A stretch of 39,747 nt of DNA from Escherichia phage Vec13: sequence record NC_048023.1. One strand, 5' to 3'. Shown here piece by piece: positions 1-39,747 of this stretch; the stretch's first letter is position 1; each line of letters opens with the position of its first letter. The notes under the pieces are model-generated. The model had not been told where the DNA came from, searched no databases, and saw nothing but the letters and a program-made list of their open reading frames with translations. A program made the translations under genes and the position numbers.

Positions 1-179
1 TCTCACAGTTCAAGAACCTCAAGTCTCCCCATAGGCCCTCTTTAAGTCCAGACCAAAGGCCCTACCCCAGTCTATCATAAGGTTAGACCGATGGTCAAGA
101 CTTCAGGTCAACGATAGGTGGTGACTATGGCTTAGGGAAGGACGATAGGTGGTGACTATAGGTCTGTCTTTGAGTCTCT
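1..179. repeat. Left direct terminal repeat (DTR), identical to 39569..39747
   Basis: First 179 nt are repeated exactly at the right end of the window; T7-like genomes carry 150-250 bp DTRs. Confidence 0.9.
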
Positions 180-200
180 ATCTGTATCAGACCTTGAGTC

Positions 201-245
201 ACTACCTACAGTCTAACTACCTACAGTCTAACTACCTACAGTCAT
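201..245. repeat. Tandem 15-bp repeats (actacctacagtcta x3) just inside left DTR; further cctacagt copies to about 294
   Basis: Direct reading; similar cctacagt/cctacggt motifs recur at 39490..39540 next to the right DTR, analogous to T7 concatemer-junction short repeats. Confidence 0.7.
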
Positions 246-400
246 AGACCATCGGTAATGCCACTACCTACAGTCAGAGACCTACAGTTAATAGACACAA
301 AGGATATAGACTTAAGGTCTAAGACATGTTAGTCAAAGACTATATCCTCTTACACCAAGGGGCCGACGATAGCTTAATCAATATTATTTCAAATTACCTA

Positions 401-429
401 TTGACTACAGGTCCAGACTATGGCTTAAT
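401..429 (+). promoter_or_regulatory. Putative host sigma70 early promoter (TTGACT-N17-cTTAAT with upstream TG)
   Basis: -35 TTGACT at 401-406, extended -10-like TGgCTTAAT at 421-429; position matches T7 A1-A3 early promoter region. Confidence 0.35.
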
Positions 430-710
430 AGCTTCCGTCAACACGACACGGTAACAACCGGATAGTGAAGACGCCTGGTCATCCAGGTTAAGTAGACAGC
501 CTGATAAGTCATACGAACAACAGGCAGATGACAATAAGGTAGTAAGGTCGCTGAGGGCTTCCACTTCAGCAGGTCGGAAAGGTCCTAAAACCTAACGAGA
601 GTCTGACCAGCTCGCCAAGTCTGCCACTGAGGTGGATAACCAGAGGAGGCAACGTGTCGCCCACTGAGGGGCTACAGCTCACGGTTTAGGTTAACAGGCT
701 AAACAAATGC

Positions 711-739
711 TTGACAAGATGTAACGATAAGATGTAAGC
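711..739 (+). promoter_or_regulatory. Putative host sigma70 early promoter (TTGACA with weak -10)
   Basis: Perfect -35 TTGACA at 711-716; candidate -10 TGTAAG/GTAAGC 16-17 nt downstream; location comparable to T7 A3. Confidence 0.3.
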
Positions 740-854
740 TGTACCACATCGAAACAACGGTGATGACCAACACTGAAATGGTCTACCTGAAGTCCTCTGA
801 CTGAAGGGAATGCTCTTTAACAATCTGGATAAACTCTTAATGTGCGCCGATAGC

Positions 855-912
855 GACTAACTACAGGGCCTTTGAGTCTACATCTGAAGGCCCTGACTGA
901 TAGTCACTAACA
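855..912 (+). promoter_or_regulatory. RNase III-like processing hairpin preceding first early gene
   Basis: Perfect 9-bp stem cagggcctt/aaggccctg with flanking conserved ctgactgatagtcactaac element shared with 1207..1260 and 1524..1577; T7 R0.3 lies at the equivalent place. Confidence 0.5.
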
Positions 913-929
913 ACCTAAGAGGATTCATT

Positions 930-1208
930 ATGAGACTGAACAAAGCTACAGCAGAAGCCTTTCGCAAGGAGCTTGAATCAAGATTATTGCGTGGAGTGAA
1001 GGAAGAAGCCGCGCGTTATAAAGAGAACGGTCTAACGTTCAAGCGCTTCATGTGGGATTGCTATCGTGGAGTGGGCCATAAGAAGTCGCAGGATATAATC
1101 ATCAGTAACAATACGGAAGTGCAAGTGGTGGGAGGATATATGACTAACGTGAAGGATTCACACATAGAGACCATGCTCAAGAATGCACTTAAAGATGTAG
1201 CCTACTAG
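930..1208 (+). CDS. Hypothetical early protein (92 aa), upstream of ocr
   Basis: ORF with SD aagagga 7 nt upstream of ATG; preceded by RNase III-like hairpin; no homolog recognised. Confidence 0.6.
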   Translation: MRLNKATAEAFRKELESRLLRGVKEEAARYKENGLTFKRFMWDCYRGVGHKKSQDIIISNNTEVQVVGGYMTNVKDSHIETMLKNALKDVAY

Positions 1209-1260
1209 TGATTAACTACAGGTCGTTAGACTGATAGCGGCCTGACTGATAGTCACTAAC
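1207..1260 (+). promoter_or_regulatory. RNase III-like processing hairpin (stem-bubble-stem)
   Basis: Inner stem caggtcg/cggcctg (one G-U), outer stem gtgatta/tagtcac; near-identical copy at 1524..1577. Confidence 0.5.
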
Positions 1261-1267
1261 TTAACGG

Positions 1268-1522
1268 ATGGACACTATGAAACACTTAAGCACAATCACT
1301 AATCACAATGAAGTATTCGTGAACACTAAAGGTTATGCGTGGATTCAGCTTAAAGAGATGAGAGGAGCGCGTCACCGTGTGGTAGTTCGCAAGGTCTCAA
1401 GCAAGCCGTTCAGCAACTACAGCGTAGATATTGTGCGTATAGACAACGAGACTTACCTGATAGACTCGCAGATAACCGTGAGTCCTACAGCGGGAATCTC
1501 AGCTCCTTATTTCGCTAACTGA
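1268..1522 (+). CDS. Hypothetical early protein (84 aa)
   Basis: ORF between two RNase III-like hairpins in the early region; alternative start at 1277; no homolog recognised. Confidence 0.55.
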   Translation: MDTMKHLSTITNHNEVFVNTKGYAWIQLKEMRGARHRVVVRKVSSKPFSNYSVDIVRIDNETYLIDSQITVSPTAGISAPYFAN

Positions 1523-1523
1523 G

Positions 1524-1577
1524 AGTGATTAACTACAGGTCGTTAGAATCATAGCGGCCTGACTGATAGTCACTAAC
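1524..1577 (+). promoter_or_regulatory. RNase III-like processing hairpin preceding ocr
   Basis: Second copy of the 1207..1260 element (differs at 3 positions in the loop). Confidence 0.5.
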
Positions 1578-1609
1578 ATACACACAAACAACTTTGAGAG
1601 GATATAACT

Positions 1610-1942
1610 ATGGAACGTAACGCTAACGCATACTATGAGCTGCTGGCTGCAACCGTTAAATGCTTCAACGAGCGTATTCAGTACGACGAAATAGCTGAAG
1701 GCGATGATTACCACGATGCGCTGCATGAGGTCGTAGACGGTAAGGTTCCGCACTATTACCACGAGATTTTCACGGTGATGGCTGCTGATGGTATAGACCA
1801 CGAGTTCGAAGACTCTGGGCTGATGCCTGAAACCAAGGACGTAACGCGTATACTACAAGCTCGCATCTATGAGGCGCTTTATAACGATGTGCTTAATAAC
1901 TCGGATGTGGTCTGGTTTGAGGCTGAAGAGGACTGCGAGTGA
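1610..1942 (+). CDS. ocr: Ocr-like DNA-mimic anti-restriction protein (T7 gp0.3 homolog)
   Basis: 110 aa; motif [43 protein letters not shown] closely matches T7 Ocr ([43 protein letters not shown]); acidic; SD gagagga. Confidence 0.9.
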
Positions 1943-2097
1943 TGGTAACTTATGGTCTCTGCCAGCACCATGTAGCCAACGCCCGGATTATGGTCAAGAC
2001 CGGGCAGTTAAACCATGATGCGGCTATGCGTCACCTGAAAGCGGTCTATGAGGGCCGCAAGCGTATACACGACAGTTTGCACGCTGAGGACAAGTAA
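1942..2097 (+). CDS. Small hypothetical early protein (51 aa)
   Basis: ATG overlaps ocr stop (tgATG); SD gagga 8 nt upstream; below ORF-track length cutoff; position analogous to T7 0.4-0.6 small genes. Confidence 0.35.
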   Translation: MVTYGLCQHHVANARIMVKTGQLNHDAAMRHLKAVYEGRKRIHDSLHAEDK

Positions 2098-2098
2098 C

Positions 2099-2224
2099 AT
2101 GTACCAGATAACTTATAGCAGTGAACAGGCGTTCTACGATGGGTGCTACGAGATGATGAAGCGCGGGGCTTGCTACGTGGCTAATCACCATAGCCTGACC
2201 ATAACGCTGACAGGTGGGTACTGA
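2099..2224 (+). CDS. Small hypothetical early protein (41 aa)
   Basis: Starts 1 nt after previous stop; SD gagga upstream; tightly packed. Confidence 0.3.
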   Translation: MYQITYSSEQAFYDGCYEMMKRGACYVANHHSLTITLTGGY

Positions 2225-2227
2225 GTG

Positions 2228-2265
2228 ATAGACGAGAGGTCATCGACTGATAGGTGGCCTCAAAG
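2228..2265 (+). promoter_or_regulatory. RNase III-like hairpin (aggtcat ... gtggcct motif)
   Basis: gaggtca pairs with tggcctc (one G-U); same aggtca/tggcct core as hairpins at 6084, 13374, 36491. Confidence 0.4.
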
Positions 2266-2295
2266 ATTACCACTTGCATTGATAGGAGAATTACT

Positions 2296-2463
2296 ATGAA
2301 ATTTACAATCATCGCACTTTACGTAACCATTATTCTATCTTGGCTTACTGCGGTGCTCACTGATGGTAACGCATTACGACTGGGCTGGCTGGCAGTGGAC
2401 ATTATATTCTCTCCGGTAGGTGTCGTGCGCGGCATCTTGATGTGGATTGGACTGGCGGGATAA
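2296..2463 (+). CDS. Small hydrophobic (2-TM) early membrane protein (55 aa from ATG at 2296)
   Basis: SD ataggag then ATG; sequence MKFTIIALYVTIILSWLTAVL...VGVVRGILMWIGLAG is two predicted TM helices; ORF track gives longer 2254 start without RBS. Confidence 0.55.
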   Translation: MKFTIIALYVTIILSWLTAVLTDGNALRLGWLAVDIIFSPVGVVRGILMWIGLAG

Positions 2464-2466
2464 ACT

Positions 2467-2667
2467 ATGAGTCTTGCACTATTGATAGCCATAGGCTATG
2501 GACTTATCGCCTACGTGCTGGTGAGAGACATCAACAAAGCGCGTAAAGTCTACAAATTAAACTATGTACGTCTGGGCCGCTGGACTGTACGTCAACCTAA
2601 CGGACGATTCATGCGTAACTTAGCGAACGTCTGGGATATAGCAACACTTGGGAGCAAACTACAATGA
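2467..2667 (+). CDS. Small early membrane protein (66 aa, N-terminal TM helix)
   Basis: MSLALLIAIGYGLIAYVLV hydrophobic N-terminus followed by basic tail; starts 4 nt after previous stop. Confidence 0.5.
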   Translation: MSLALLIAIGYGLIAYVLVRDINKARKVYKLNYVRLGRWTVRQPNGRFMRNLANVWDIATLGSKLQ

Positions 2668-2990
2668 ACAAGTCATACGGGATTAATCTGGTACACTCTA
2701 TGGATGCAGACATGCAAATGTTAAGCCTACTGGCTACCGGGTATCGTCACGGAACGTCAAGTCACTCCGCACGTCAACAGCAGGAGAGGGACCGGGTACT
2801 ACAAGCAAGACTCAGGGCGGAGGGCCATAAGTCCGAACTGATGTGTCTGGCGTATGGTGGACGACCAATCACTGACGATGGTAAACTTCTGGTCTCAGGC
2901 TGGAAGGCGATAGACCAACGGTCAACCATCAAGCACACGACTCATGGTGACTTCAGTCATCTTCACGCTAACCCTCTGATATGCAAGTGA
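2664..2990 (+). CDS. Hypothetical early protein (108 aa) occupying the position of T7 gene 0.7
   Basis: ORF overlapping previous stop by 4 nt; no protein kinase motifs; unknown function. Confidence 0.5.
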   Translation: MNKSYGINLVHSMDADMQMLSLLATGYRHGTSSHSARQQQERDRVLQARLRAEGHKSELMCLAYGGRPITDDGKLLVSGWKAIDQRSTIKHTTHGDFSHLHANPLICK

Positions 2991-2995
2991 TTCTG

Positions 2996-3018
2996 ACTTA
3001 ACTATCACTATAGGACTC
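2996..3018 (+). promoter_or_regulatory. Phage RNAP promoter immediately upstream of the RNAP gene
   Basis: cttaACTATCACTATAGGAct matches the 11-copy phage promoter consensus; +1 G at 3013. Confidence 0.7.
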
Positions 3019-3087
3019 AAGGTCTAAGACTCCAAGTGAAAGACCAAAGAGACTTTAAGTGAAAGACTAATAACAAGGACTTTAAGT

Positions 3088-5769
3088 ATGAGCGTCATCT
3101 CTATTGATAAACACGACTTCTCTGATGTGTCGAACGCCATTGAGCCGTTTAACCTGCTGGCCGACCACTACGGGCAAGACCTTGCAGTCAAACAGCTTCA
3201 GCTTGAGCATGAGGCATACACTGAAGGCGAGCGACGTTTCATCAAAAACCTTGAGCGACAGACTGAGCGCGGGGAACTGGCAGACAATCAGGTCGCCAAG
3301 CCTTTGATGCAGACTCTGGTTCCTAAGATTGCGCAAGCCGTCAAGGAGTGGCACGAAGGTCCAGACGGGAAGCTGTCAACCTCACGTCCGAGCGTAGCGT
3401 TCACCATGTTAAGCACTGAAGAGAAGGCCGTCAAGGACCGCTCTCTTCGCATCTCCTGCGAGTCTGCTGCGGTTATCATACTGAAGGTCATCCTCTCCAA
3501 GCTGGTCAAGCCTGAAGGTATACCGATTACACCGATGGCCTCCGCGATAGGTCGCACACTTGAGGATGAAATCCGATTCGGTCGCATTCGTGACAAGGAG
3601 AAGGAGCACTTCAAGAAGGCGATAGCTGATAACCTGAACAAGAGAGCCGGGGCATCATACAAGAAAGCCTACATGCAAGCGGTCGAGACATCCATGCTGG
3701 AGCAAGGCCAACTAGAAGATGCGTGGGGAACTTGGAGTCCGACCGAGGCTGTCCACGTTGGAATCAAGATGCTGGAGATTGTCATACAGTCAACACAACT
3801 GGTCGAGCTTAAGCGTTACGGTGCTGGCAATGCAGCGGCTGACGTTGAGATGGTCCACCTGTCAGACTTCTGGGTCAAGAAGATGGCACAACGCGGCTTC
3901 AGCCTTGCGGGTATCGCTCCAGTCTACCAACCTTGCGTAGTTCCACCTAAGCCGTGGACTGGTGTCGTAGGCGGTGGGTACTGGGCCAAAGGTCGCAGAC
4001 CATTACCACTGATTCGCTTAGGGTCTAAGTCTGCGGTGGCACGTTACGAAGACGTGTATATGCCTGAAGTATATGACGCTGTTAACATCATCCAGAATAC
4101 ACCTTGGAAAGTAAACAAGAAGGTTCTTGACGTGGTGAACATGGTCGAGAAGTTGAACAACACGCCTATTGATGACATCCCTCAGATGGAGCCACTGAAG
4201 CCTGAAGACTATGCGGGTGAGACTGAAGAGGAACTCAAGGCATGGAAGAAGGCTGCTGCTGGTATCTACCGCCGAGAGAAGGCCCGGCAGTCACGTAGAT
4301 TGTCACTGAGCTTTATCGTTAACCAAGCGAACAAGTTCTCTCAGTTCAAGGCCATCTGGTTCCCGTACAACATGGACTGGCGCGGTCGCGTCTACGCTGT
4401 GCCGATGTTCAACCCTCAGGGTAACGACATGCAAAAGGGTCTCCTGACTCTGGCAGTCGGTAAGCCTATTGGTGCTGATGGTTTCAAATGGCTGAAGGTC
4501 CACGGTGCAAACTGTGCGGGTATTGATAAAGTAACCTTCGAGGAGCGCATCAAGTGGGTGGAAGATAACCACGACAACATCATGGCTACCGCTAAGGCAC
4601 CGATGGACAGCATTGAGTGGTGGGGGAAGTTAGACTCTCCTTTCTGCTTCCTTGCGTTCTGCTTCGAGTATGCTGGCGTGATGCACCACGGATTGTCTTA
4701 CTCCTGCTCGCTGCCGATAGCTTTCGATGGGTCCTGCTCTGGGATTCAGCACTTCAGCGCTATGCTTCGTGACCACATCGGTGGACATGCAGTAAACCTG
4801 ACGCCTTCCGGTAAGGTCCAAGACATCTACCGCATCGTGTCTGACCGCATTGAGGAAGAGCTTAAAGTCCTGCTGGTTAACGGCACGGACAACGAGATGG
4901 TAACTCACGAGGACAAGAAAACTGGTGAGATTACCGAGCGTCTCAAGCTGGGGACACGAGAGCTGGCCCGTCAGTGGCTGACCTACGGTATGTCACGAAA
5001 GGTCACTAAGCGCTCAGTCATGACTCTGGCCTACGGGTCGAAAGAGTACGGATTCGCAGACCAAGTATACGAGGACATCGTGATGCCAGCGATTGACTCA
5101 GGGTCTGGCGCTATGTTCACTGAACCAAGCCAAGCATCTCGCTTCATGGCTAAGATGATTTGGGAAGCTGTGAGTGTGACCGTAGTTGCTGCGGTTGACG
5201 CGATGAAATGGCTTCAGGGTGCTGCCAAGCTGCTGGCGGCTGAAGTGAAGGACAAGAAGACGGGTGAAATCCTGAAGCCTTGCCTTCCGGTACACTGGGT
5301 CACACCTGATGGGTTCCCGGTCTGGCAGGAATACCGCAAGAAGGATACCACTCGTCTGAATCTGATGTTCTTAGGGTCATTCAACCTTCAGCCTACCGTC
5401 AACAAAGGCACGAAGAAAGAGCTGGATAAGCACAAGCAGGAGTCAGGCATTAGCCCGAACTTCGTCCACTCACAAGATGGTAGCCACCTCCGCAAGACTG
5501 TAGTCCATACTCACCGCAAGTATGGCGTGATGTCGTTCGCAGTGATTCACGATAGCTTCGGGACCATCCCGGCTGACGCTGAGTATCTGTTCCGTGGGGT
5601 CCGTGAGACTATGGTCGAGACCTACCGCGACAACGATGTGCTGCTTGACTTCTACGAGCAGTTTGAATACCAGCTTCACGAGAGCCAGCGCGATAAGTTG
5701 CCAGAGCTTCCGAAGAAAGGTAAACTGAATATCGAAGACATCTTGTCTTCAGACTTTGCATTCGCTTAA
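3088..5769 (+). CDS. Single-subunit DNA-directed RNA polymerase (T7 gp1 homolog)
   Basis: 893 aa; long colinear identity with T7 RNAP incl. FPYNMDWRGRVYAV, LPIAFDGSCSGIQHFSAMLRD, VHSQDGSHLRKTV, HDSFGT, C-terminal FAFA. Confidence 0.98.
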   Translation: MSVISIDKHDFSDVSNAIEPFNLLADHYGQDLAVKQLQLEHEAYTEGERRFIKNLERQTERGELADNQVAKPLMQTLVPKIAQAVKEWHEGPDGKLSTSRPSVAFTMLSTEEKAVKDRSLRISCESAAVIILKVILSKLVKPEGIPITPMASAIGRTLEDEIRFGRIRDKEKEHFKKAIADNLNKRAGASYKKAYMQAVETSMLEQGQLEDAWGTWSPTEAVHVGIKMLEIVIQSTQLVELKRYGAGNAAADVEMVHLSDFWVKKMAQRGFSLAGIAPVYQPCVVPPKPWTGVVGGGYWAKGRRPLPLIRLGSKSAVARYEDVYMPEVYDAVNIIQNTPWKVNKKVLDVVNMVEKLNNTPIDDIPQMEPLKPEDYAGETEEELKAWKKAAAGIYRREKARQSRRLSLSFIVNQANKFSQFKAIWFPYNMDWRGRVYAVPMFNPQGNDMQKGLLTLAVGKPIGADGFKWLKVHGANCAGIDKVTFEERIKWVEDNHDNIMATAKAPMDSIEWWGKLDSPFCFLAFCFEYAGVMHHGLSYSCSLPIAFDGSCSGIQHFSAMLRDHIGGHAVNLTPSGKVQDIYRIVSDRIEEELKVLLVNGTDNEMVTHEDKKTGEITERLKLGTRELARQWLTYGMSRKVTKRSVMTLAYGSKEYGFADQVYEDIVMPAIDSGSGAMFTEPSQASRFMAKMIWEAVSVTVVAAVDAMKWLQGAAKLLAAEVKDKKTGEILKPCLPVHWVTPDGFPVWQEYRKKDTTRLNLMFLGSFNLQPTVNKGTKKELDKHKQESGISPNFVHSQDGSHLRKTVVHTHRKYGVMSFAVIHDSFGTIPADAEYLFRGVRETMVETYRDNDVLLDFYEQFEYQLHESQRDKLPELPKKGKLNIEDILSSDFAFA

Positions 5770-5783
5770 CAGGAGAGAGAGCT

Positions 5784-5999
5784 ATGAAATTTGCACACAA
5801 GCATACTGGCGTTAATGGTGGGACTCAAATCGTGACCGTAACAGAACACAACGGCAAGGGTCTGGTGAAGACCACGGTCATCCCTACCGAGATGTCCAAG
5901 CAGCTTAACATCCCGTTCAAGACTCTTGTAGATCTGGTCGAGTCCAGCCACGAGAAGTACCTGAAGGACGCAGTGTCAAAACTGGAGCAGACCAAATGA
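5784..5999 (+). CDS. Hypothetical protein (71 aa) between RNAP gene and phi1.1-like promoter
   Basis: SD aggaga 7 nt upstream of ATG; no T7 counterpart recognised at this location. Confidence 0.5.
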   Translation: MKFAHKHTGVNGGTQIVTVTEHNGKGLVKTTVIPTEMSKQLNIPFKTLVDLVESSHEKYLKDAVSKLEQTK

Positions 6000-6063
6000 C
6001 AGACCTACAGTTGCTGGCCTTGTGGCTGGGAGCAATTGCAGTATTCACTTTAATCCAACGCAG

Positions 6064-6086
6064 AAGAGGTTAACCTAAACTATCAC
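6064..6086 (+). promoter_or_regulatory. Phage RNAP promoter (phi1.1-like; candidate primary replication origin region)
   Basis: cctaaACTATCACTATAGGatt; in T7 the phi1.1A/B promoters with adjacent AT-rich DNA form the primary origin. Confidence 0.8.
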
Positions 6087-6128
6087 TATAGGATTAGACT
6101 CAAGGTCATGACTCAAAGTCGTGGCCTT
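6084..6128 (+). promoter_or_regulatory. RNase III-like hairpin (conserved tagactcaaggtcat ... gtggccttcatgatta)
   Basis: One of three near-identical elements (also 13374..13418, 36491..36538); aaggtca pairs with tggcctt with a G-U. Confidence 0.55.
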
Positions 6129-6169
6129 CATGATTAACCCTAAATAAACACTACTGGAGATTTAACCGT

Positions 6170-6349
6170 ATGTATCAGAATACTATCAACTTCGAGCGCA
6201 TCCGTGAACGTCAGCAGACTGAAGGTTACATTCCTAAGGGCCGCAAGCTGAACAAGACTAAACGTGGAGGCGGCATCAAAGGTGCTTTCCGTAACGCTGA
6301 AGGTAAAGACTCTATGGTCAACCAAGAGAAATACTTCGTAGGAGCATAA
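6170..6349 (+). CDS. gp1.1-like small basic protein (59 aa)
   Basis: Contains KGRKLNKTKR as in T7 gp1.1; SD ggag; below ORF-track cutoff. Confidence 0.65.
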   Translation: MYQNTINFERIRERQQTEGYIPKGRKLNKTKRGGGIKGAFRNAEGKDSMVNQEKYFVGA

Positions 6350-6353
6350 CTCT

Positions 6354-6617
6354 ATGGGCCGACTTTATAGTGGCAACCTCAACGCTTTCAGAGCAGCGTG
6401 TAACAGGCTTTATCAGTTAGACTTCGCTGTTATATCTCAGGAGTTTCAAGACCATGTGTCACACCAAGAGTGCATGAAACTCAGGGTGGAGGACAGAACT
6501 GGTAACATCTTCGCGCTTGAGTCCTTCGCACACTACGATGACGACGTGCTGTATAATACTGCAACCGACTACCTCAACGGTCTCGCTGACCAACTAGACA
6601 CATGGAGCAAAGCATAA
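6354..6617 (+). CDS. gp1.2-like protein (host dGTPase inhibitor homolog)
   Basis: 87 aa; MGRLYSGNLNAFRAA...LDFAVI...KLRVEDRTGN matches T7 gp1.2 MGRLYSGNLAAFKAA...IRLRIEDRSGN. Confidence 0.85.
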   Translation: MGRLYSGNLNAFRAACNRLYQLDFAVISQEFQDHVSHQECMKLRVEDRTGNIFALESFAHYDDDVLYNTATDYLNGLADQLDTWSKA

Positions 6618-7639
6618 TGACAACTATCAAAACTAACCCGCACCGCGCTGTAGATTACTCTGAGTCTGGCATTAAGAAGGCACTGGAAGCAGCCGGGTCT
6701 CTGGAAGCTGAAGTGAAGTACGATGGTGTCCGGCTGAACCTTCCGGTGCTGCGAGAAGGTGAGACATACTGGTTAAGCCGTGAGTCTAAACCGCTGCCAG
6801 CACTGGAGTGGATGAACTCTGAGTTAGGGAATGCGTGGACTCAAGCTGACTGGCGATGGTTCCTGCGTCAAGCTGGATACGAAGGCGTGGGACTGATGAT
6901 TGACGGAGAGGTAATGGTCAAAGGCGTTGACTTCAACACATCATCGGGTCTCATCCGAACGAAGTGGCTGAAGCCTAGCAACGAGGAGTTCGCTGAATGC
7001 TATCCTGGACGTGGCAAGAAGGTCCCGTTCTGGGTCGCCCGGTCACGACTCAAGGTTGTGGTCTACGGCGTCGTCGATATGACAACCATTGCTGACCCGA
7101 AAGCCGAAGGTCCTATCCATAGCGTCACACGCCTGAAGGCCGAAGCTATCGTCCCTCTCCTTCAGAAATACTTCCCGGAAATCGACTGGGTTCTCTCTGA
7201 GAGTCATACAGTGTTCAACCTTGAGTCTCTTCGTGATTTGTACGAGGAGAAGCGATCAGATGGACATGAAGGTCTGGTAGTCAAGGACCCACTGGGCAAA
7301 TACAAGCGTGGTAAGAAGTCTGGTATGTGGAAGATGAAGCCAAGTGAAGAGGCAGATGGTCACGTTGTTCGCCCGGTGTGGGGAACAGAAGGTCTAGCCA
7401 ACGAAGGCATGGTCATCGGCTTTGACGTTATGCTCGAGAACGGGATGGAGGTCTCCGCAACTAACATTAGTCGCGCCCTTATGTCCGAGTTCACGGAGAA
7501 CGTTAAGTCAGACCCTGACTACTACAAGGGGTGGGCTTGCCAGATTACCTACATGGAGGAGACACCAGATGGCTCATTGCGACATCCCTCGTTCGACCAG
7601 TGGCGTGGAACTGAGGATAATCCTACAGTCAAGATTTAA
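6617..7639 (+). CDS. ATP-dependent DNA ligase (T7 gp1.3 homolog)
   Basis: MTTIKTNP start (T7 MMNIKTNP); catalytic EVKYDGVR lysine motif; GHEGLVVKDP, KRGKKSGMWKMKP, WACQITYMEETPDGSLRHPSF conserved; preferred start 6617 rather than track 6602. Confidence 0.95.
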   Translation: MTTIKTNPHRAVDYSESGIKKALEAAGSLEAEVKYDGVRLNLPVLREGETYWLSRESKPLPALEWMNSELGNAWTQADWRWFLRQAGYEGVGLMIDGEVMVKGVDFNTSSGLIRTKWLKPSNEEFAECYPGRGKKVPFWVARSRLKVVVYGVVDMTTIADPKAEGPIHSVTRLKAEAIVPLLQKYFPEIDWVLSESHTVFNLESLRDLYEEKRSDGHEGLVVKDPLGKYKRGKKSGMWKMKPSEEADGHVVRPVWGTEGLANEGMVIGFDVMLENGMEVSATNISRALMSEFTENVKSDPDYYKGWACQITYMEETPDGSLRHPSFDQWRGTEDNPTVKI

Positions 7640-7678
7640 AGTGGACGAAAGGTAGCCTTGAGAGATTCATTATAATGT

Positions 7679-7720
7679 CAACCCAGTGGTCTTAGGACTG
7701 CTGGGTTTCTTTGCTTTGTG
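7679..7720 (+). terminator. Putative early (host RNAP) terminator, TE-like
   Basis: Stem acccag/ctgggt followed by T-rich tttctttgctttgtg directly after ligase gene, where T7 TE lies. Confidence 0.45.
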
Positions 7721-7753
7721 CTAGCAAGCTATCGTCTGGGCCACCAGATAGAC

Positions 7754-7776
7754 CCTAAGCTATCACTATAGGACAA
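7754..7776 (+). promoter_or_regulatory. Phage RNAP promoter (variant, G at -13)
   Basis: ctaagCTATCACTATAGGaca; +1 G at 7771. Confidence 0.7.
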
Positions 7777-7802
7777 CCCTAACCGACCAAAGGAGAAACC
7801 TT

Positions 7803-8057
7803 ATGTCTAAAAACTTAATGTTCAACCGATTTACTCGAAGCTTCCACCTGTCGCATAGCCCATTCAGCTTCCATAAAGCTAATCAACCATTACCCCGCTT
7901 TGGTAAGACAGTGGCTCTGTCTCCTACAGTTCATGCGCTAGTCACCCGCAAGTCTATGCTGAATGCTATGGATAAAGAACAAATTGATGTACCTGTGGTC
8001 GTTACAAAATGGCCTCGCATTAAGCTGGCACTTCAGGTAATTAAGGAGGCGCTCTGA
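7803..8057 (+). CDS. Hypothetical protein (84 aa), gene 1.4-1.6 region
   Basis: SD aaaggag; follows phage promoter. Confidence 0.55.
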   Translation: MSKNLMFNRFTRSFHLSHSPFSFHKANQPLPRFGKTVALSPTVHALVTRKSMLNAMDKEQIDVPVVVTKWPRIKLALQVIKEAL

Positions 8058-8609: not shown

Positions 8610-8696
8610 ACCGAGTGAGTGGTGCCGGGAGATGTACGAGAAGACTCTCAACCCGGACTACATTACGTTATACAACCAATGGAAGGAGCGTGGTCT

Positions 8697-8855
8697 ATGA
8701 CTGACGTAGAAAAGAAATACATCGTGGAGCTTGAGGGTCGCGTTCAGTCATTCGAGGTTCCGGTGTACGCAAAGTCTCTTGAAGAGGCTACCCTGAAGTC
8801 CCAAGAGTATGAGGACGCTGGGTTTGTGGTCGGACGGATTCGTCCTGAGACCTAA
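8697..8855 (+). CDS. gp2-like inhibitor of host RNA polymerase
   Basis: [15 protein letters not shown]...[10 protein letters not shown] resembles T7 gp2 HSFEVPIYAETLDEA...AGFEVTRVRP; start at internal ATG 8697 with SD aaggag (track ORF 8619..8855). Confidence 0.7.
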
Positions 8856-13207: not shown

Positions 13208-13372
13208 GTGTTAAAGAAACTTAAAGCTCGATACCACATGTTCATGTACAAATGGTGGAGCGATGAAGCAACCTGCCTGTCGAACATTCTGGGAGACCAG
13301 CGGTTCAACTCTGAGGCATGGAAGAAAGCTAACCGGAAGTTCATGTATCACTTCTTGCGTACAGACTTCTAG
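13208..13372 (+). CDS. Small hypothetical protein (54 aa, GTG start), gene 4.3/4.5 position
   Basis: Strong SD acggagga 7 nt upstream of GTG; below ORF-track cutoff. Confidence 0.35.
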   Translation: MLKKLKARYHMFMYKWWSDEATCLSNILGDQRFNSEAWKKANRKFMYHFLRTDF

Positions 13373-13373
13373 G

Positions 13374-13418
13374 TCTAGACTCAAGGTCATTCATAGCGAG
13401 TGGCCTTTATGATTAGAC
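13374..13418 (+). promoter_or_regulatory. RNase III-like hairpin (conserved element copy 2)
   Basis: tctagactcaaggtcat ... gtggcctttatgattagac; same motif as 6084 and 36491 copies. Confidence 0.55.
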
Positions 13419-13436
13419 TAAAGCGGAGGATTAACC

Positions 13437-36230: not shown

Positions 36231-36490
36231 CGCAGATGGACTTAGAGAAGTTCCTCTTGATGCTAGATACTGAACGTGCTCGACTCATGCTGCAAGACCT
36301 GCGGGATGACACTAAGCGTTCACCTCAGCTTTACAACGCCATTGAGAAGCTACTGGCTCGTCACAACTTCGTGCTAAGCAAGGTGTCTGTCGACGAGAAG
36401 ACTCTGGCTGATATGGAGGCCCTGAACGCAGAGTACGATAAGGTGCTCTCGGCTACGGAAGATAATGACACCGGGTATGGTGTTCAATAA
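36227..36490 (+). CDS. Terminase small subunit (T7 gp18 homolog)
   Basis: 87 aa ORF immediately upstream of Rz-like and TerL in T7 order; SD aaaggagg. Confidence 0.8.
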   Translation: MTQMDLEKFLLMLDTERARLMLQDLRDDTKRSPQLYNAIEKLLARHNFVLSKVSVDEKTLADMEALNAEYDKVLSATEDNDTGYGVQ

Positions 36491-36538
36491 GTGTTAGACT
36501 CAAGGTCATTACTATATGTAGTGGCCTTTATGGTTAAC
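36491..36538 (+). promoter_or_regulatory. RNase III-like hairpin (conserved element copy 3, R18.5-like)
   Basis: gtgttagactcaaggtcat ... gtggcctttatggttaacac; outer arms gtgtta/taacac complementary. Confidence 0.55.
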
Positions 36539-36591
36539 ACTAACTAGTGGAGGAGACTCTACGTGAAATCTGATAAACCGGGAGGGCAACT

Positions 36592-39568: not shown

Positions 39569-39747
39569 TCTCACAGTTCAAGAACCTCAAGTCTCCCCAT
39601 AGGCCCTCTTTAAGTCCAGACCAAAGGCCCTACCCCAGTCTATCATAAGGTTAGACCGATGGTCAAGACTTCAGGTCAACGATAGGTGGTGACTATGGCT
39701 TAGGGAAGGACGATAGGTGGTGACTATAGGTCTGTCTTTGAGTCTCT
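39569..39747. repeat. Right direct terminal repeat (DTR), identical to 1..179
   Basis: Exact 179-nt repeat of the window start. Confidence 0.9.

Follow-up and report, generated by a model that had tools for sequence, protein, structure and literature searches.

A kinase-free early region in Escherichia phage Vec13 with a diverged homolog of T7 gene 0.4

Bacteriophage T7 carries the small genes 0.4, 0.5 and 0.6A/B between gene 0.3, which encodes the DNA-mimic anti-restriction protein ocr, and gene 0.7, whose product gp0.7 combines a kinase domain with a C-terminal third that is the part associated with host shut-off. In phage K1F the early region (0.3, 0.35, 0.36, 0.37, 0.38, 1; AM084414 / DQ111067) reaches gene 1, the RNA polymerase gene, without a kinase. 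Here we analyze the corresponding interval, 1942-2990, of Escherichia phage Vec13 (NC_048023.1). The window, as we call the whole stretch of 39,747 base pairs (bp), is a complete linear T7-like genome: its two ends, 1-179 and 39569-39747, are exact direct repeats of the same 179 bp. The interval has the K1F layout, the kinase being likewise absent, and holds five small open reading frames (ORFs) of 51, 41, 55, 66 and 108 amino acids (aa). We consider it quite probable that the locus is a standard early region of the genus Kayfunavirus without its optional kinase, ordinary in architecture and offering one useful reassignment, that of the 51-aa gene to the family of T7 gene 0.4.

Bases 1500-3200 of the window match 260 phage records, nearly all of them Kayfunavirus (K1F-like Studiervirinae), with CLB_P1, BDX03P1 and Peacock as the best matches (94-96%). 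Annotated relatives share one order, in which ocr is followed by several small "hypothetical" genes, named 0.35, 0.36, 0.37 and 0.38 in K1F, and then by the RNA polymerase gene. The K1F proteins gp0.35, gp0.36 and gp0.37 are 73%, 87% and 95% identical to the 51-, 55- and 66-aa proteins of the window, and gp0.38 is 75% identical to the core of the 108-aa protein. K1F differs from the window in having no 41-aa gene and in carrying gp0.38 as a short 86-aa form. The absence of the kinase is not new: K1F records have shown it since 2005, and it is true of most of the genus.

Five genes and an optional kinase

The five ORFs, all on the + strand and all found where the original prediction had placed them, lie at 1942..2097 (51 aa), 2099..2224 (41 aa), 2296..2463 (55 aa), 2467..2667 (66 aa) and 2664..2990 (108 aa). 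In the same order, they are carried by 179, 108, 50, 220 and 220 phage records, and their median pairwise ratios of nonsynonymous to synonymous substitution rates (dN/dS) against relatives are 0.16, 0.12, 0.11, 0.21 and, for the core of the 108-aa protein, 0.16. Because they are conserved in 50-220 records with dN/dS in the range of that of ocr (0.20), they are genuine genes under purifying selection and not chance ORFs. A Shine-Dalgarno-like purine run stands 5' of four of the five, the signal being weak before the 66-aa ORF, and ATGA stop/start overlaps join ocr to the 51-aa gene and the 66-aa gene to the 108-aa gene. Pfam and NCBIfam scans of the five proteins returned no significant family, the Pfam copy scanned being one that predates PF26807.

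As the original prediction had stated, the window has no gp0.7 kinase. A tblastn search with T7 gp0.7 against all six frames found no kinase similarity anywhere (best E = 0.72), and scans of the five proteins against Pfam, PHROG and NCBIfam returned no kinase family. The longest ORF of the interval has 108 aa, as against the ~220-240 aa of a gp0.7-type kinase domain (phrog_2828 / 15752 / 18305). None of the five proteins is similar by tblastn to any part of gp0.7, its C-terminal shut-off region included.

Relatives of the locus show that the kinase is variably present. We mapped every gene on 21 loci collected because they encode the 66-aa protein. Eight of them, from viral contigs (L018-L023, L026 and L027), carry a gp0.7-type kinase, as do Escherichia phage Pisces (MK903277) and Salmonella phage CHRF_30001 (species Kayfunavirus SFPH2); these make up a kinase-positive set of ten loci, at least two of which are annotated Kayfunaviruses. 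Over the first ~220 residues of T7 gp0.7, identity to the kinase of the genus is 29-35%, with the alignment covering T7 residues about 20-220. With its 244 aa it comprises the kinase domain only, and the C-terminal third of T7 gp0.7 is absent. Homologs of the 66- and 108-aa proteins co-occur with the kinase in all ten loci, the kinase always standing upstream of the pair, while a homolog of the 41-aa protein is found in seven and one of the 55-aa protein in a single locus. The order in L020 is a gene resembling S-adenosylmethionine (SAM) hydrolase, a 76-aa ORF, the 41-aa homolog, a hairpin, the kinase, a second hairpin, the 55-aa homolog, the 66-aa homolog, an HNH endonuclease, the 108-aa homolog and gene 1.

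At more than 60% identity the kinase is present in about 48 phage records, compared with about 220 that have the 66/108 pair; roughly three quarters of these phages are without it. Within the genus the gp0.7-type kinase is an optional cassette that some members carry and others lack. Relatives combine it with homologs of the 41-, 55-, 66- and 108-aa genes and have the 66/108 pair downstream of it; the small genes are therefore its neighbours and not its substitutes. The kinase-bearing Kayfunaviruses, Pisces and CHRF_30001 among them, have in common with the window the same hairpin family and a 66/108 pair that precedes gene 1, many of them have the 41-aa gene too, and the N-terminus of the RNA polymerase is 65-93% identical across the eight kinase-carrying viral-contig loci. 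Unlike the window, the kinase-bearing loci have the 244-aa kinase, usually a SAM hydrolase in the place of ocr and, in nine of ten, no gp0.4 homolog. We considered whether kinase and gp0.4 might be mutually exclusive cassettes and rejected this as a rule, as L019 and Rahnella phage Sarma103 have both. A homolog of gp2, the inhibitor of the host RNA polymerase, lies at 8694-8846 of the window; since it is retained, the kinase-less phage still has a known route to host shut-off.

Several public records of this region are apparently misannotated (LT594300, LM33_P1; OM937123, CY1; OM355495, ZH4; PV611674, CHX131), and some label ocr or a gp0.4-like ORF 'protein kinase'.

The 51-aa gene and the T7 gp0.4 family

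T7 gp0.4 was reportedly described by Kiro and colleagues in 2013 as an inhibitor of FtsZ polymerisation. Like the 51-aa protein of the window, it has 51 aa and is encoded directly after ocr, with an ATGA overlap, and upstream of the RNase III site R0.5; the site follows directly in T7 and K1F, and in the window the 41-aa gene stands between. BLASTP aligns the two proteins with 41% identity over 41 aa (E 2e-7), the 51-aa ORF is the top tblastn match of T7 gp0.4 in the window, and PHROG matches between the two are reciprocal. Comparison by hhalign of a 95-sequence Kayfunavirus profile with a profile of the T7-group gp0.4 gave a probability of 94.2% (E 1.1e-7), and hidden Markov model searches succeed both ways. 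In a large protein collection, precomputed Pfam assignments place PF26807.1 on all 94 relatives of the 51-aa protein and on all 43 of T7 gp0.4; the Pfam scan of the 51-aa protein was empty because PF26807 is newer than the copy scanned. ORF2 of Rahnella phage Sarma103, annotated 'putative host cell division inhibitor', is intermediate in sequence, and the next gene in that phage is homologous to the 41-aa gene. By all of these comparisons the 51-aa gene is a homolog, if a diverged one, of T7 gene 0.4. It is called "hypothetical" in every sampled phage record that annotates it alone, and in one closer relative, CHX131, 'NinH protein'.

Mutational work on T7 gp0.4, which sequesters monomeric FtsZ, has separated the residues needed for that sequestration (V15, V22, W28, M32, L35 and Y39) from those needed only for its detection by the defence protein CapRel(Ebc) (A12, T14, L16, S19, R23 and K36), and W28L and W28A each abolish both toxicity and FtsZ binding (Zhang et al. 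2026, PMC13423816). At the FtsZ-contact positions the 51-aa protein has V11, V18, M29, L32 and Y36, identical to the T7 residues, and H25 in place of W28; these residues are near-invariant across the 95-member family. Among the six residues read by CapRel(Ebc) it keeps only K36, and the turn between what would be its two antiparallel helices is one residue longer than in T7. This pattern suggests that the FtsZ face has been selectively conserved while the CapRel face has diverged at five of six positions. The 51-aa protein would then probably bind monomeric FtsZ on its synergy-loop face and block Z-ring polymerisation as T7 gp0.4 does.

The assignment bears directly on K1F. Infection by K1F produces filaments with multiple Z-rings, and the authors of that study, who saw no similarity by BLAST, write that K1F "lacks the 0.4 genes" and call its division inhibitor unknown (Dhanoa et al. 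2022, PMC9372555). K1F gp0.35 has the same residues at the six contact positions as the window protein. It was missed by BLAST because the K1F copy is more diverged; the copy in the window bridges K1F and T7. Together, K1F gp0.35 and its window homolog are a specific candidate for the "unknown" K1F division inhibitor, and this gp0.4-family protein probably accounts for the division block. The original prediction had suggested that small membrane proteins might inhibit host division; the soluble 51-aa gp0.4 homolog is better assigned that role. Nothing in the analysis spoke either for or against a part of the membrane proteins in superinfection exclusion.

Hairpins, small genes and promoters around the cassette

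The early T7 RNase III sites R0.3, R0.5, R1, R1.1 and R1.3 are bipartite hairpins with an upper stem of about 9-10 bp, placed between genes directly after a stop codon. The hairpins of the genus share these features, and with R0.5 they have flanks in common as well. An RNase III-like hairpin had been predicted at 2228..2265, preceding the gene cluster. Fold and covariance model both support its RNase III type; its location proved to be inside the cluster, after the 51- and 41-aa genes, and its full extent on the + strand is 2223-2275 in the single-sequence fold and 2224-2275 in the model match. The fold consists of a lower stem, an internal loop and a 9-bp upper stem (-18.9 kcal/mol, z -2.8). 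Three paralogs at 852-909, 1207-1258 and 1524-1575 share it with z between -5.2 and -5.7, and among six paralogs compensatory changes occur at 8 of 19 pairs. Aligned with T7 R0.5, the hairpin at 2224-2275 has in common CTGAGTGATAGAC...AGGTC...GTGGCCT...GATTA.CACTT.

A covariance model trained on hairpins of the window and L020 only scores 63.6 bits for 2224-2275. On bases 1-6500 of T7 the same model gives five + strand matches and no others (854-901, 1429-1479, 3102-3149, 5849-5898 and 6414-6453). Inside these five fall positions 890, 1468, 3138, 5887 and 6448, at which Dunn and Studier (1983) reportedly placed the cleavage of R0.3, R0.5, R1, R1.1 and R1.3. Judged by alignment and model, the hairpin at 2224-2275 is a homolog of the T7 R0.5 RNase III site. 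Further model matches in the window lie at 6090-6142, 13371-13420 and 36490-36542; an Rfam search of bases 1-8000 returned no family.

In kinase-less relatives where it is found the hairpin at 2224-2275 is 91-98% conserved, whichever gene comes next. In K1F it stands directly after gp0.35, which reproduces the T7 order of ocr, 0.4 and R0.5; the window has the 41-aa gene intercalated. In sister phages the kinase cassette occupies the position of the 2224-2275 hairpin, with one hairpin on each side. The 2224-2275 hairpin itself resembles a recombinant of the two kinase-flanking hairpins of L020, its flanks being like the downstream one and its upper stem like the upstream one; the same upper-stem sequence also occurs in T7 R1, and the resemblance is suggestive only. 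The hairpins at 852-909, 1207-1258 and 1524-1575 are near-identical, and each is followed by CTGACTGATAGTCACTAAC and then by a gene start (a 92-aa ORF, an 84-aa ORF and ocr, respectively); between those at 1207 and 1524, identity is 95% across 57 nucleotides (nt). Repeated intergenic modules of this kind could serve as recombination points at which early-gene cassettes are shuffled.

Of the remaining genes of the interval, the 41-aa accessory early gene (phrog_33188, E 1.8e-6) encodes a protein that is soluble by hydropathy and occurs in kinase-positive and kinase-negative relatives alike. The two products originally predicted to be small membrane proteins look membrane-bound by hydropathy too: the 55-aa protein (K1F gp0.36; phrog_7319, E 5.9e-24) has two hydrophobic stretches, at residues 1-24 and 26-55 (maximum KD19 2.26), and the 66-aa protein (K1F gp0.37; phrog_2385, E 3.3e-32) has one, at its N-terminal residues 1-22 (KD19 2.32), followed by a conserved basic tail with a net charge of +9. 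As the first gene after the R0.5-type site, the 55-aa gene holds the positional slot of T7 gene 0.5, whose product is also small (47 aa), hydrophobic and encoded directly after R0.5. The two proteins have no sequence similarity and belong to different PHROG families. Searches of the window by tblastn with T7 gp0.5, gp0.6A and the C-terminal part of gp0.6B likewise had no hit in the interval, and PHROG places these proteins in other families; one K1F record calls the 66-aa gene '0.6', apparently from its position only. The close relatives Peacock (L004, 1446-1535) and EPr2 (L002, 1255-1344) have in this slot, behind the R0.5-type hairpin, a hydrophobic ORF of 29 aa that is unrelated to the 55-aa gene. 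Non-homologous small membrane proteins fill one slot after this hairpin, as T7 gp0.5 does.

The 66/108 pair is a hallmark of the genus, and the ATGA overlap probably couples translation of the 108-aa gene to that of the 66-aa gene. In L020 an HNH-type endonuclease ORF of 140 aa (2686-3108) lies between the two and breaks this coupling; a similar gap is seen in L009, L023 and L027. In the 108-aa family (K1F gp0.38; phrog_7066, E 6e-46) the N-terminus varies and the core is conserved, with the motif T-T-x-G-D-F-S-H-L close to the C-terminal end; searched exhaustively with a profile, 1.84 billion representatives yielded only 13 matching clusters. The protein is predicted to be helical: a first AlphaFold2 (AF2) model reached a pLDDT of 57 and a second one, built with more divergent homologs, 72, with helices at 33-52, 56-63 and 71-88 (pLDDT 86-91) and the C-terminal motif at low confidence. 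A Foldseek search of the PDB gave no match below E 1.9, and a profile search of PDB sequences gave none.

Upstream of the 51-aa gene, the protein encoded at 1610..1942 (+ strand) is ocr, matching Pfam PF08684 (E 3.8e-32) with 55% identity to T7 gp0.3. Downstream of the 108-aa gene, gene 1 (3088..5769, + strand) is an 893-aa ORF for a single-subunit RNA polymerase whose N-terminal 200 aa share 99.5% identity with K1F gp1 and 48.5% with T7 gp1. Between the two lies, at 3000-3015, one of eleven phage-RNA-polymerase-type promoter cores (AACTATCACTATAGGA, up to 3 mismatches), all on the + strand, as against 0.25 expected by chance; the others are at 6078, 7758, 8855, 11206, 17530, 20730, 21718, 26505, 33781 and 38900. 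The promoter at 3000-3015 marks the right-hand limit of the part that only the host RNA polymerase can transcribe. As it stands immediately before the gene for the phage's own RNA polymerase, this promoter suggests that gene 1 is positively autoregulated; T7 is not known to have a phage promoter directly upstream of gene 1. T7 has R1 there, where the window has the promoter instead, and the covariance model finds no R1-type hairpin in the gap at 2990-3087 that separates gene 1 from the 108-aa gene. One processed messenger RNA, running from 2224-2275 to the site at 6090-6142, may therefore carry gene 1 together with the 55-, 66- and 108-aa genes. A sigma-70 scan performed no better on the window than on shuffled sequence and did not locate the early promoters. 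A strong terminator-like hairpin at 7680-7707, with 12 pairs followed by a T-run, stands after the ligase gene; it is likely the equivalent of the T7 early terminator TE, so that transcription by the host enzyme would end there. A 15-nt unit (ACTACCTACAGTC...) is present four times at 201-282, close to the left end and past the terminal repeat, with three copies in tandem and the fourth 32 nt further on.

Alternative readings and the organisation of the early region

Taking the locus as a kinase-free Kayfunavirus early region, we propose that the interval forms the distal half of the class I (early) operon in a phage of the K1F type. On the analogy of T7, the host RNA polymerase would transcribe this operon, starting at the left end, and RNase III would cut the transcript at the bipartite hairpins. 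Along it follow ocr, the gene 0.4 homolog, the 41-aa accessory gene, the R0.5-type site and a small protein with two putative transmembrane segments in the gene 0.5 slot, then the coupled genus-marking pair (the membrane-anchored basic 66-aa protein and the helical 108-aa protein), the phage promoter and gene 1; the small genes would accordingly be expected to act early. The gp0.7 kinase would be missing because it is a dispensable cassette that varies within the genus, one that in sister phages appears as the 244-aa kinase, bounded at either end by a hairpin and placed downstream of the 41-aa gene and upstream of the 55/66-aa genes.

The original prediction read the locus otherwise, with the small genes, above all the two membrane proteins, functionally replacing gp0.7 through host shut-off, division inhibition or superinfection exclusion. 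The kinase is indeed absent from the window, two of the ORFs do encode membrane proteins by hydropathy, and as the 244-aa kinase of the genus does not include the host shut-off-associated part of T7 gp0.7, some shut-off function could lie elsewhere. We nevertheless find replacement improbable: homologs of the 66- and 108-aa genes accompany the kinase, downstream of it, in ten of ten loci (the 41-aa gene in seven, the 55-aa gene in one), T7 too has small genes in this interval, the 51-aa gene is homologous to one of these existing T7 genes, and the five proteins resemble no part of gp0.7. Comparative genomics of the locus, which finds the kinase variably present upstream of the 66/108 pair, leaves the idea unsupported. 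It may still be that the 66/108 pair is a new membrane-anchored host-takeover module, supplying the shut-off that in T7 belongs to the C-terminal third of gp0.7 absent from the genus's kinase, and this we regard as a weaker possibility than an immune-evasive gp0.4, taken up below. Another way to discount the small genes is to suppose that the 41- and 51-aa ORFs are untranslated and that their conserved DNA represents RNA structure or regulatory sequence. Both ORFs are very short, and the record of the relative SH4 leaves the 41-aa ORF unannotated; yet their dN/dS of 0.12-0.16 was obtained at a dS of around 0.26-0.28, their frames are intact in 108-179 records, Shine-Dalgarno-like runs precede them, and one of them is homologous to a protein of demonstrated function, T7 gp0.4. 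We give this explanation very little credence.

More serious, if still rather unlikely in our estimation, is that the 51-aa protein belongs to the gp0.4 family and has changed its target. It would then not inhibit FtsZ, and the division block in K1F would come from another early protein that acts on the divisome, for instance one of the two membrane proteins of 55 and 66 aa. Small membrane proteins of other phages are known to block division, and lambda Kil, which acts on FtsZ/ZipA, is an example of a small phage division blocker. Overall identity to T7 gp0.4 is only about 40%, the longer turn sits beside the His-for-Trp change, and that change, at a position where W28L and W28A inactivate T7 gp0.4, is found in 91 of 95 family members. 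On the other hand, the other five validated contact residues are identical and nearly invariant although the CapRel face has diverged at five of six positions, K1F shows the gp0.4-like multiple Z-ring phenotype (PMC9372555), and the 55-aa gene, present in only about 50 records, offers no explanation for a genus-wide trait. The same pattern of residues admits a further reading, which we put forward tentatively and think possible without expecting it: that the Kayfunavirus gp0.4 clade is an immune-evasive FtsZ inhibitor, in which the FtsZ face is kept at five of six positions while five of the six CapRel(Ebc)-read residues and the essential Trp are replaced, by substitutions that predominate in the clade.

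Several points weigh against our account of the locus as a whole. A function can be named for only one of the five proteins, the 51-aa one. His stands at the W28 position in nearly the entire family even though W28 is essential in T7, so that target or binding mode may differ. K1F gp0.35 and T7 gp0.4 give no pairwise BLASTP alignment, and the link between them is made by profiles, intermediate sequences and synteny. Finally, RNase III cleavage at 2224-2275 is predicted from homology only.

In summary, the useful result is the placement of the 51-aa gene in the family of the T7 FtsZ inhibitor gp0.4, which names K1F gp0.35 as a candidate. This reassignment corrects the published statement on K1F (PMC9372555); its novelty is modest, as Pfam already groups both families. 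The pattern of kept and replaced residues leads to direct mutational predictions and to a prediction on escape from CapRel-type defences. If the clade is indeed immune-evasive, the 51-aa family would be the missing K1F division inhibitor, one that escapes effector-triggered sensing by CapRel(Ebc). Moreover, the modular make-up of the early region, in which RNase III-type hairpins stand between cassettes and the kinase is an optional one of these, matters for annotation and engineering in a genus some of whose members are candidates for phage therapy.

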